Assembly (NCBI GenBank): GCA_965261425.1
Contig: OZ253452.1
Span: 2,275,892 to 2,339,891, forward strand
Reading direction: 5' to 3'
Length of the DNA stretch: 64,000 nucleotides
Origin: Candidatus Spongiihabitans sp.
Lineage (GTDB): Bacteria > Pseudomonadota > Gammaproteobacteria > Arenicellales > Poriferihabitantaceae
Both the position numbers and the translations under genes were made by a program. The notes beneath the pieces are model-generated. The model searched no databases. It was given only the letters and a program-made list of their open reading frames with translations, and was not told the origin of the DNA. How positions within the stretch are numbered: the stretch's first letter is position 1; each line of letters starts with the position of its first letter. Shown piece by piece: positions 18,388 through 18,455 of this stretch.

Positions 18388-18455
18388 TGTTAGCCCAAAG
18401 CAGTAATGTCCCTCTTGAATAAGTCAAAAGGGGACATTACTGCTTTGGGCTAACA
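18388..18455. repeat. Perfect 25-bp inverted repeat (hairpin) whose right arm is the junction repeat ...GGGGACATTACTGCTTTGGGCTAACA
   Basis: 18388-18412 (TGTTAGCCCAAAGCAGTAATGTCCC) is the exact reverse complement of 18431-18455, with an 18-nt spacer. It ends exactly where the interrupted PLC-like gene resumes. Confidence 0.9.

Follow-up and report, generated by a model that had tools for sequence, protein, structure and literature searches.

The short repeat ending in ...CTAACA, found at three sites of a 64,000-nucleotide stretch of the genome of Candidatus Spongiihabitans sp. (contig OZ253452.1; hereafter the window), is the terminal ~26-60 bp of the transposase-proximal left end (IRL) of a ~1.45-kb insertion sequence (IS) of the IS1202 family (ISNCY). 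Four dead end-fragments of this element are present in the window, at three sites and without transposase (Table 1). The identity of the IRL and the histories proposed below for the three sites (48782, cmk and PLC), taken jointly, are held with good confidence. The element is of a known kind, the IS member itself being probably unnamed and represented by relics only. The initial annotation of this DNA was careful and largely correct: it had suggested that the repeat may terminate a mobile element, which is upheld, and the junction at ...CTAACA is a true one made by a transposase. It was wrong on two qualifications. The element is not "uncharacterised", the repeat being the IRL of an IS1202-family/ISNCY insertion sequence, and it is not "one-ended", since intact relatives possess a right end (IRR) and the insert in the PLC gene starts with a degenerate IRR-like sequence.

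Table 1. Features of the window at the cmk, PLC and 48782 sites.
Feature	Coordinates	Strand	Basis or remark
First copy of the 394-nt repeat	12012..12405	+	Inside intact cmk (11558-12229) and downstream spacer
Left edge of the island, 3' end of a lapA-like gene	12406..12500	+	~70% nt identity to resident lapA 30806-30869
Left copy of the 21-bp target duplication in PLC, ATCATGTAACGTTCCAGGTTC	12772..12792	+	Native to PLC according to P0002
Degenerate IRR-like terminus, AGTCTTTTCCAATATGAAATGAGTCT	12793..12818	+	Left boundary of the insert; register set by the duplication
Cargo of the putative transposase-less element	12819..18387	-	Pfam, PDB matches
iolC-like kinase pseudogene fragment	~12845-13099	-	Best PDB match 2qcv, E = 8.5e-4
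Amino-acid-type ABC transporter	13392-16443	-	Pfam
Xylose-isomerase-like TIM-barrel gene	16534-17397	-	Pfam
3-Hydroxyisobutyrate-dehydrogenase-like gene	17415-18311	-	Pfam
Second IRL tip, ~25 nt, inverted, left hairpin arm	18388..18413	+	Abuts the promoter region of the dehydrogenase operon
IRL stub, one-site form	18410..18455	-	blastn against IS_L111 positions 1-29 and 33-70; nhmmer IRL model E = 1.6e-15
Right copy of the 21-bp target duplication	18456..18476	+	Exact repeat comparison
29-nt cmk 5' fragment	27975..28003	+	Identical to 11573-11601
IRL stub, two-site form, with ~15 transposase codons (MTEEIITLSKTELDR)	28005..28122	-	95.8% identity to L111
Second copy of the 394-nt repeat: cmk 3' end and 176 nt downstream	28122..28515	+	100% identical to 12012-12405
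Third IRL stub, one-site form, 1 mismatch	48743..48782	-	Core search, profile search, alignment

Distribution and identity of the repeat

The 20-mer ATTACTGCTTTGGGCTAACA was scanned in one genome per species. At least 108 loci were recovered with this core, from many Gammaproteobacteria and from a few other phyla. Among the loci listed are representatives of Thiorhodospira, Sedimenticola, Chromatiales, Pseudomonadales, Halieaceae and Acidithiobacillus, metagenome-assembled genomes (MAGs) of sponge symbionts, one acidobacterium and one planctomycete; the core matches in these listed loci often lie about one assembly k-mer from contig ends. The alignment of 111 occurrences reveals that the sequence to the right of ...CTAACA is unrelated in every case (106 distinct flanks). 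The interior (left) side is conserved and displays one or two GGGGACAT-N-CTTTGG motifs, a ribosome-binding site and then a start codon. At related loci the transposase ORF begins ~50-75 nt inside the repeat. It encodes a protein of 421-433 aa that scores 447.7 bits on the NCBIfam model NF033594 "ISNCY family transposase" (cut-off of 250 bits), and this name is borne by thousands of relatives in public databases. Among the 59 evaluable copies of the repeat, the transposase is full-length in 29, partial in 13 and absent from 17.

Intact elements from other genomes (more than 20 copies) measure 1433-1480 bp and are bordered by target duplications of 14-18 bp. Their IRL is TGTTAGCCCAAAGCAGTAATGTCCCC and their IRR is TGTCAA(A/C)(G/C)C...AAATGTCCCC, with the tips 5'-TGT...ACA-3', and each end carries one or two copies of the transposase-binding motif. 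The second GGGGACAT site sits 24-25 nt further inward, and the one-site form of the IRL also exists in intact elements and stubs of other genomes. The transposases of L026, L060 and L111 read GRVERAN(K/R)TLQDRL, where Q is placed 7 residues after the catalytic E. L111 is the closest intact relative retrieved (1455 bp, 15-bp duplication), and its start displays 95.8% identity over 118 nt with positions 28005-28122 of the window.

The IS1202 family is described by TGT/ACA tips, an extra internal transposase site and a Q at E+7 replacing K/R, and its published duplication classes are 5-6, 15-17 and 27-28 bp, the class of 15-17 bp being that of the ISTde1 subgroup (bioRxiv 10.1101/2022.12.17.520857, PMC10132070). 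ISTde1, ISCARN62/53 and ISVbsp4 are examples of this subgroup (Siguier et al. bioRxiv 10.1101/2022.12.17.520857; PMC10132070). From the tips, the extra site, the Q at E+7 and the duplication class, the repeat is thereby identified as the IRL of an IS of this kind, and its duplications of 14-18 bp together with the published description fit the ISTde1 type. Other traits are shared with ISTde1-type elements: the copies of the relatives encode one DDE transposase, 421-433 aa long, which has HTH domains at its N-terminus and the motif RVERANKTLQ, the intact copies elsewhere have the same length (1.43-1.48 kb), tips and duplications (14-18 bp), and the imperfect terminal repeats of 24-29 bp contain a conserved block at about position 20 and a second internal transposase site. 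Partial copies retaining the IRL alone have also been reported in the family. Unlike the described members, the window contains neither a transposase nor a canonical IRR, one of its copies is an IRL/IRL hairpin, and the 21-bp duplication in the PLC gene, the sole one attributable to these ends, is outside the three published classes.

Since a very stable hairpin can form from the copy at 18388-18455, the repeat might otherwise be a REP-like element, a terminator, a small-RNA gene or a hotspot of structure-driven recombination or replication restart. This possibility is practically negligible. The hairpin exists in only one of the four copies, and in other genomes the repeat physically terminates an element that encodes a transposase and is flanked by target duplications. 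The hairpin is not followed by a T-run, and the sole Rfam match in the window is a SAM riboswitch unrelated to the repeat; a known RNA or terminator was rejected for these reasons. The recombination or replication hotspot suggested earlier finds no support in the at least 108 loci, whose flanks are unrelated, and this wide survey identified the repeat as part of the end of a known element.

End fragments at three sites

The 26-nt core GGGGACATTACTGCTTTGGGCTAACA is exact at 18430-18455 and 28097-28122 and is found with one mismatch at 48757-48782, and an inverted copy with one mismatch corresponds to 18388-18413. As a control for the window search, shuffled sequence contained no core match. Three copies of a 35-nt repeat had been described. 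Two of them stand, at 18421-18455 and 48748-48782, whereas at 28064-28122 the halves of the 35-mer are separated by an insert, a 24-nt near-repeat of the core that represents the second transposase site. With nhmmer, profiles built from 50 left and 6 right ends detected no further IS1202 end in the window beyond the four known copies, all of which match best as IRL. Transposase homology in the window beyond the codons of the stub was not detected by tblastn; the codons that remain are the first ~15, at 28005-28050. No match was found in metagenomes for the window-specific IRL with the transposase start.

The stub 18410..18455 keeps the IS positions 1-26 and the segment up to the transposase ribosome-binding site; its tip at 18455 abuts the 3' part of the PLC gene, and it provides the right arm of the hairpin. 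The tip of the stub 28005..28122 abuts the cmk position 12012/12013. The junction comparison agrees with the earlier observation that host sequence resumes directly after ...CTAACA at 18455 and 28122, and the overlaps reported there, of 3 nt (PLC) and 1 nt (cmk), are both counted here as ambiguous bases.

On its inner side, the stub 48743-48782 is cut short by heptamer repeats and a further repeat element, and no duplication flanking it was found in the 64-kb window. This site would represent an ordinary insertion whose interior was lost afterwards. At ~15 solo IRL stubs from other genomes, no flank duplication was found within the available 2.8-7.4 kb. Since neither the third copy nor these solo stubs show a duplication within the sequence covered, duplications do not accompany the repeat in general.

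The surrounding genome is IS-ridden. Besides an element of the IS1634 family, the window contains a second copy of it, which an IS5-family element interrupts, and a fragment of IS30.

The cmk site and the 15.6-kb island

The direct duplication at cmk, given as 395 bp in the initial annotation, is corrected to 394 nt, of which 1 nt is ambiguous with the IS tip. The left cmk copy is intact (Pfam Cytidylate_kin 1-210/211). Directly on the left of the 28-kb copy lies a 29-nt cmk 5' fragment which had been overlooked and which changes the meaning of the 394-bp repeat; taking the IS tip for the right edge of a 15.7-kb insertion, as in the initial annotation, leaves this fragment unexplained. This fragment is joined to transposase codon ~15 via a TCGG microhomology (28005-28008). 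As the cmk fragment adjoins the stub, it was the second copy of a more extensive cmk duplication that received the IS, and the 394-bp repeat is not a duplication produced by the repeat element, as had been proposed. We infer that it is the visible part of a cmk duplication of ~833 bp (11573-12405).

The simplest reading of this site is a history in three steps. The cmk segment of ~833 bp would already have been duplicated on either side of an island of ~15.6 kb. The IS would then have inserted into the redundant, promoter-less second cmk copy at 12012. Finally, a deletion across the 4-nt microhomology would have eliminated cmk 11602-12028 together with the IS, of which 118 nt were spared, leaving the IS tip adjoining the 394-bp repeat.

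The island (12406-27974, ~15.6 kb) consists of a coherent set of inositol-phosphate/PLC genes, and a syntenic locus exists in another genome. The resident lapA, to which the left edge is related, is located two genes downstream of rpsA, and on the right the island passes into the cmk fragment. No similarity to an IS1202 or IS1634 end is seen at either edge (nhmmer; anchored alignments). A tandem duplication of the cmk-to-lapA block was rejected on the basis of the identities, ~70% for lapA versus 100% for cmk; a single-event origin of the island flanks therefore does not explain both. The candidates for the origin of the island and of the cmk duplication are a Campbell-type integration of a circle, or a homology-anchored illegitimate recombination followed by a deletion.

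The insert in the PLC gene

The PLC/ricin gene is split by the insert, and position 12792 joins to 18477 in frame. An intact homologue, P0002 (528 aa, 57% identity), reads DIPYNHVTFQVPHNSY straight across this join. The duplication of 24 nt reported earlier (12769-12792 = 18453-18476) is confirmed, and 21 of these nucleotides are certain; the 3 ambiguous ones are ACA (12769-12771), which is also the IS tip. An IS91-like target GTTC at 12792 was considered and rejected, because it belongs to the native, duplicated PLC sequence.

According to the initial annotation, the left ends of the two insertions had nothing in common with each other or with the repeat. This is true of the 12406 edge, which has no IS-like end, and not of 12793, where the sequence fits the right-end consensus in exact register. 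The terminus at 12793 matches the canonical IRR tips at 13 of 26 positions, among them GTC at positions 2-4 and GAAATG at positions 16-21 (empirical p~0.005, i.e. 0.5% of window positions are as good). With the variant IRR of L060, a copy with an intact transposase, the match rises to 16/26 (p~8e-5 of window positions). L048 also contains this variant, at a distance of 1479 bp from an IRL stub, and no transposase lies in the interval. With its 13/26 match the IRR-like end at 12793 is weak, and the nhmmer end profiles did not detect it. The IRR-like terminus being in a register fixed by the duplication, the insert is therefore read as a two-ended, transposase-less, operon-carrying element.

The cargo operon is found in other contexts in the relatives L112-L114. 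In L112, which lies on contig ctg137281 of ENA ERZ25069810, it is 96.7% identical over 3.26 kb and has an unrelated context; to judge from these sequences, the operon has moved between close relatives. In the PLC gene, a transposase-less element of 5,663 bp (12793-18455) would have inserted as a unit, with the transposase supplied in trans; this insertion would have made the 21-bp duplication, and the element would be bounded by the degenerate right end and the IRL. That the unit was moved by a transposase acting in trans is what we infer from this structure. According to the literature on the family, the DDE transposase cuts at the tip and joins it to the target, probably by copy-out-paste-in. 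The duplication of 21-24 bp stands against 14-18 bp in all the intact relatives examined, and the PLC event is therefore no textbook insertion. One mechanism would be a transposase in trans acting on the degenerate right end and the IRL, or on the IRL alone, with a non-concerted transfer that moves the host operon and yields a duplication of variable length; we regard this mechanism as quite unlikely.

In-situ replacement is an unlikely alternative that deserves serious consideration: a 1.45-kb IS would have inserted into the PLC gene, and its interior would later have been replaced by the 5.6-kb operon via two illegitimate joins. One of these joins would have been with a second, inverted IS copy, and the operon would never have been mobilised as a unit. 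The inner junctions do resemble illegitimate joins (IRR-like end/iolC pseudogene on one side, 25 nt of IRL/position 46 with CCCT on the other), and the genome is full of decaying IS elements. However, two independent illegitimate joins are needed, both sparing the IS tips, the 21-bp duplication is explained no better, and the other location of the operon in the 96.7%-identical relative fits a movement as a unit. The origin of the PLC structure by homologous recombination between two IS copies was rejected: in a pencil-and-paper reconstruction, neither an inversion nor a deletion leaves the two PLC halves in direct order.

The movement of the PLC insert as a two-ended unit is also to be compared with one-ended transposition, where a solitary IRL cut in trans would drag host DNA and where the other, arbitrary end would be made by host repair. 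Events of this sort are known from the Tn3 family and from IS91. Several observations agree with it: the right junctions at both sites are exactly at the IS tip, the duplication lengths (21 bp, 394 bp) are non-canonical, no IS-like end is seen on the left of the 15.6-kb island, and solo IRL stubs are common (17 of the 59 evaluable copies). Nevertheless, the cmk 5' fragment shows that at the 28-kb tip the IS simply inserted into a cmk copy and that this junction is not the leading edge of the island, the 5.66-kb insert bears an IRR-like terminus in register, and no duplication accompanies the third copy in the window or the ~15 solo stubs elsewhere within 2.8-7.4 kb. The likeness to the one-ended movements of Tn3-family, IS91 and ISCR elements is superficial (constant end, variable other end, mobilised adjacent DNA); unlike the TnpA of Tn3 or the HUH enzymes of IS91/ISCR, the transposase is a DDE enzyme of the ISNCY type and the intact elements are two-ended. 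One-ended transposition is very unlikely here, and it owes the small probability that it keeps to the odd 21-bp duplication. The evidence favours two-ended events followed by decay.

The long duplications could also have been made by the transposase of the resident IS1634 family. In this same window a 69-bp duplication borders the element at 19832-21717, and some members of this family produce variable duplications of 8-514 bp (PMC2266710). This resemblance to IS1634/IS1549 is limited to the long target duplications, as the terminal repeats and the transposase are unrelated. The 16-bp terminal repeat CCTGACTTCGACGGTT is confined to the IS copies (19832, 21703 and 55828) and absent from the relevant junctions, and the edges of both large insertions display no significant similarity to the IS1634 ends in anchored alignments. 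Such an origin is hardly credible.

An assembly artefact is extremely unlikely as well. The 394-bp and 24-bp duplications would then result from mis-joins at repeats, in a single-contig source that is probably a MAG and where the repeats are 100% identical. On the other side, the junctions are coherent (in-frame split gene, exact IS tip, microhomology joins), the 69-bp duplication of the IS1634 copy is clean, and a repeat spacing of 16 kb is easily bridged by long reads.

The hairpin at 18388-18455

The perfect 25-bp hairpin noticed in the initial annotation exists as described, with the stem arms 18388-18412 and 18431-18455; folded as DNA, it has an energy of -32.3 kcal/mol (z = -13). The inner side of the left arm has been joined illegitimately, through a CCCT/CCCC microhomology, to the other stub at about its position 46. 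The homology with L112 (96.7% over 3.26 kb) ends exactly at 18388, which is the inverted IRL tip; both tips of the hairpin are therefore genuine junctions of transposase type. A second hairpin of 68 bp was detected neither among the 108 loci listed nor in the JGI metagenomes, and there is no duplication in the immediate flanks of the 68-bp hairpin. In spite of its perfect 25-bp terminal repeats, the hairpin was thus rejected as a widespread MITE, having neither a duplication of its own nor further copies. Our guess is that two outward-facing IRL tips form either a mini-element or the residue of the collapsed centre of two inverted IS copies, and such a collapse is a plausible origin of the hairpin.

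A possible target preference

Among the 106 independent flanks, TTGAC begins at offset 16 or 17 in 15 flanks, compared with 4 flanks for all the other offsets combined. The cmk flank reads N16 after the tip, then TTGAGA at offset 17, which fits this family-wide bias, and TTGAAT is found at offset 16 in the flank of the stub 48743-48782. The alignment of flanks suggests that the subgroup may favour landing sites 16-17 bp away from TTGAC(A). For the ISTde1-type subgroup, a target preference had not been reported before.

Comparison with non-autonomous IS derivatives and significance

By its family-type ends, its flanking duplication, its lack of a transposase and its passenger genes, the PLC unit resembles non-autonomous IS derivatives (MITEs, mobile insertion cassettes and tIS such as ISKpn21). 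It differs from them by its size of 5.7 kb, by its content (a whole operon and a pseudogene fragment), by the single copy known, and by its ends, one of which is highly degenerate whereas the other is a double hairpin-forming tip. The known tIS of the family, for their part, retain the transposase and carry a single small ORF.

The three sites of the window can be annotated as relics of IS1202-family (ISNCY) ends, and what looked like two "insertions with variable duplications" can be understood as common IS decay atop larger rearrangements and not as a new class of mobile elements. The possible landing preference linked to TTGAC(A), obtained from the 106 flanks, is of modest value for IS specialists. 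The transposase-less, operon-carrying unit is also of interest to them, by its family ends and its 21-bp duplication outside the known classes. If a transposase in trans did move the host operon from such ends, decayed IS ends in symbiont genomes would stay active as mobilisers of cargo.

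Apparent target preference of the IS1202-family element

The loci of other genomes that match the 20-nt core of IRL, the transposase-proximal inverted repeat of the IS1202-family element, were inspected for motifs beyond the repeat tip. Among the matches listed (L001-L108), 15 of 106 independent insertion flanks have TTG[AC]C beginning at a distance of 16 or 17 nt from the IRL tip, and all remaining offsets together account for four occurrences in the same flanks. The flank positions at issue in the window are given in the table. As judged from these flanking sequences, the element appears to insert immediately upstream of -35-like TTGACA hexamers. 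This hexamer is the reverse complement of the element's own right-end tip, TGTCAA. No target preference for the ISTde1-type subgroup, which the element fits, is reported in the descriptions of the IS1202 family that were consulted.

The dehydrogenase/TIM-barrel/ABC-transporter operon carried by the PLC insert was compared with its counterparts in three relatives. The L112 operon displays 96.7% identity to that of the window and is flanked by a Nudix gene on one side and by an IS30-like insertion on the other. In L113 and L114 the operon adjoins a LacI-type regulator. All the operon contexts diverge at the same point, 4 nt upstream of the TTGACA -35 box of the operon.

A variant right-end motif (TTCCAATCC..AAATGAGCC) was detected in L048 (reverse strand 3073-4551), 1479 bp from an IRL stub, and no transposase homology was found in the 1479 bp between them. 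This locus, from a sponge-symbiont MAG, may represent another derivative of this IS lineage that lacks a transposase.

Coordinates of the features (window positions unless a locus is named)
Feature	Position	Strand	Remarks
Flank positions at issue for the TTG[AC]C motif	28139-28144, 48798-48803		right of IRL tips
Operon counterparts	L112 9919-13171, L113 1721-6770, L114		compared with window 18388-13352
IS1634-family element	19832-21717		550-aa transposase, NF033559 at 360 bits
Second IS1634-like copy	55828-58300		86-89% identity at left end
IS30-family transposase fragment	46410-46763		NF033563 at 78.6 bits
Dispersed repeat family (GAGACTGTGCAA...CCGTCATTCCTGCGAAAGCAGGAATCCAGTAAAACAG...)	5170-5304, 47144-47243, 48653-48711, 59185-59286, 60745-60854
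Heptanucleotide tandem repeats AATTGAG/AATTGAA and inverted complements	47268-47298, 48566-48650, 48718-48746
SAM_alpha riboswitch	35767-35842	-	Rfam match 41.5 bits, gathering score 36

Other repeats and features of the window

To the left of the third IRL stub lies a region bordered by the heptamer arrays. The 33-nt periodic repeats of the 46-48.8 kb zone are coding (ORF 47811-48464, 217 aa): the protein is built from coiled-coil-like units of 11 aa (AEIAKTNAEIVNTEAALKADIANTESVLR), after which its C-terminal stretch is hydrophobic. The IS30-family transposase fragment is enclosed by 38-nt inverted repeats (46006-47128). The transposase gene of L111, the closest intact relative retrieved, contains an in-frame 24-nt insertion identical to the 25-nt sequence GCGGTGCGGCGAGCTCACCGAGCCG of the window (46094-46118; variant at 46794-46821). 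In the dispersed repeat family, two 60-nt inverted copies lie on either side of a non-transposase ORF (59332-60507), and a related motif is found upstream of the operon in L112.

The window also has a match to the SAM_alpha riboswitch. Its gene order looks gammaproteobacterial, and riboswitches of this class are unusual in such hosts.

IS1634-family copies and island edges

The first IS1634-family element is bounded by perfect 16-bp terminal repeats and by a 69-bp target duplication (19763-19831 = 21718-21786), which adds to the long duplications already described in some IS1634-family members. In the second copy, only the left terminal repeat is detectable, and an IS5-family transposase gene (56561-58231; NF033578, 365 bits) appears to interrupt it.

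At the left edge of the 15.6-kb inositol-phosphate/PLC island (12406-12500), a lapA-like gene is represented by its 3' end (...VRRNLAKSKKEIKNLERSRLA*), with ~70% nucleotide identity to the resident lapA (30806-30869) located downstream of rpsA-ihfB. Pieces of both lapA and cmk, the genes bracketing the rpsA-ihfB block, are thus present at the island edges, an arrangement that may point to an intermediate of circular or tandem form.
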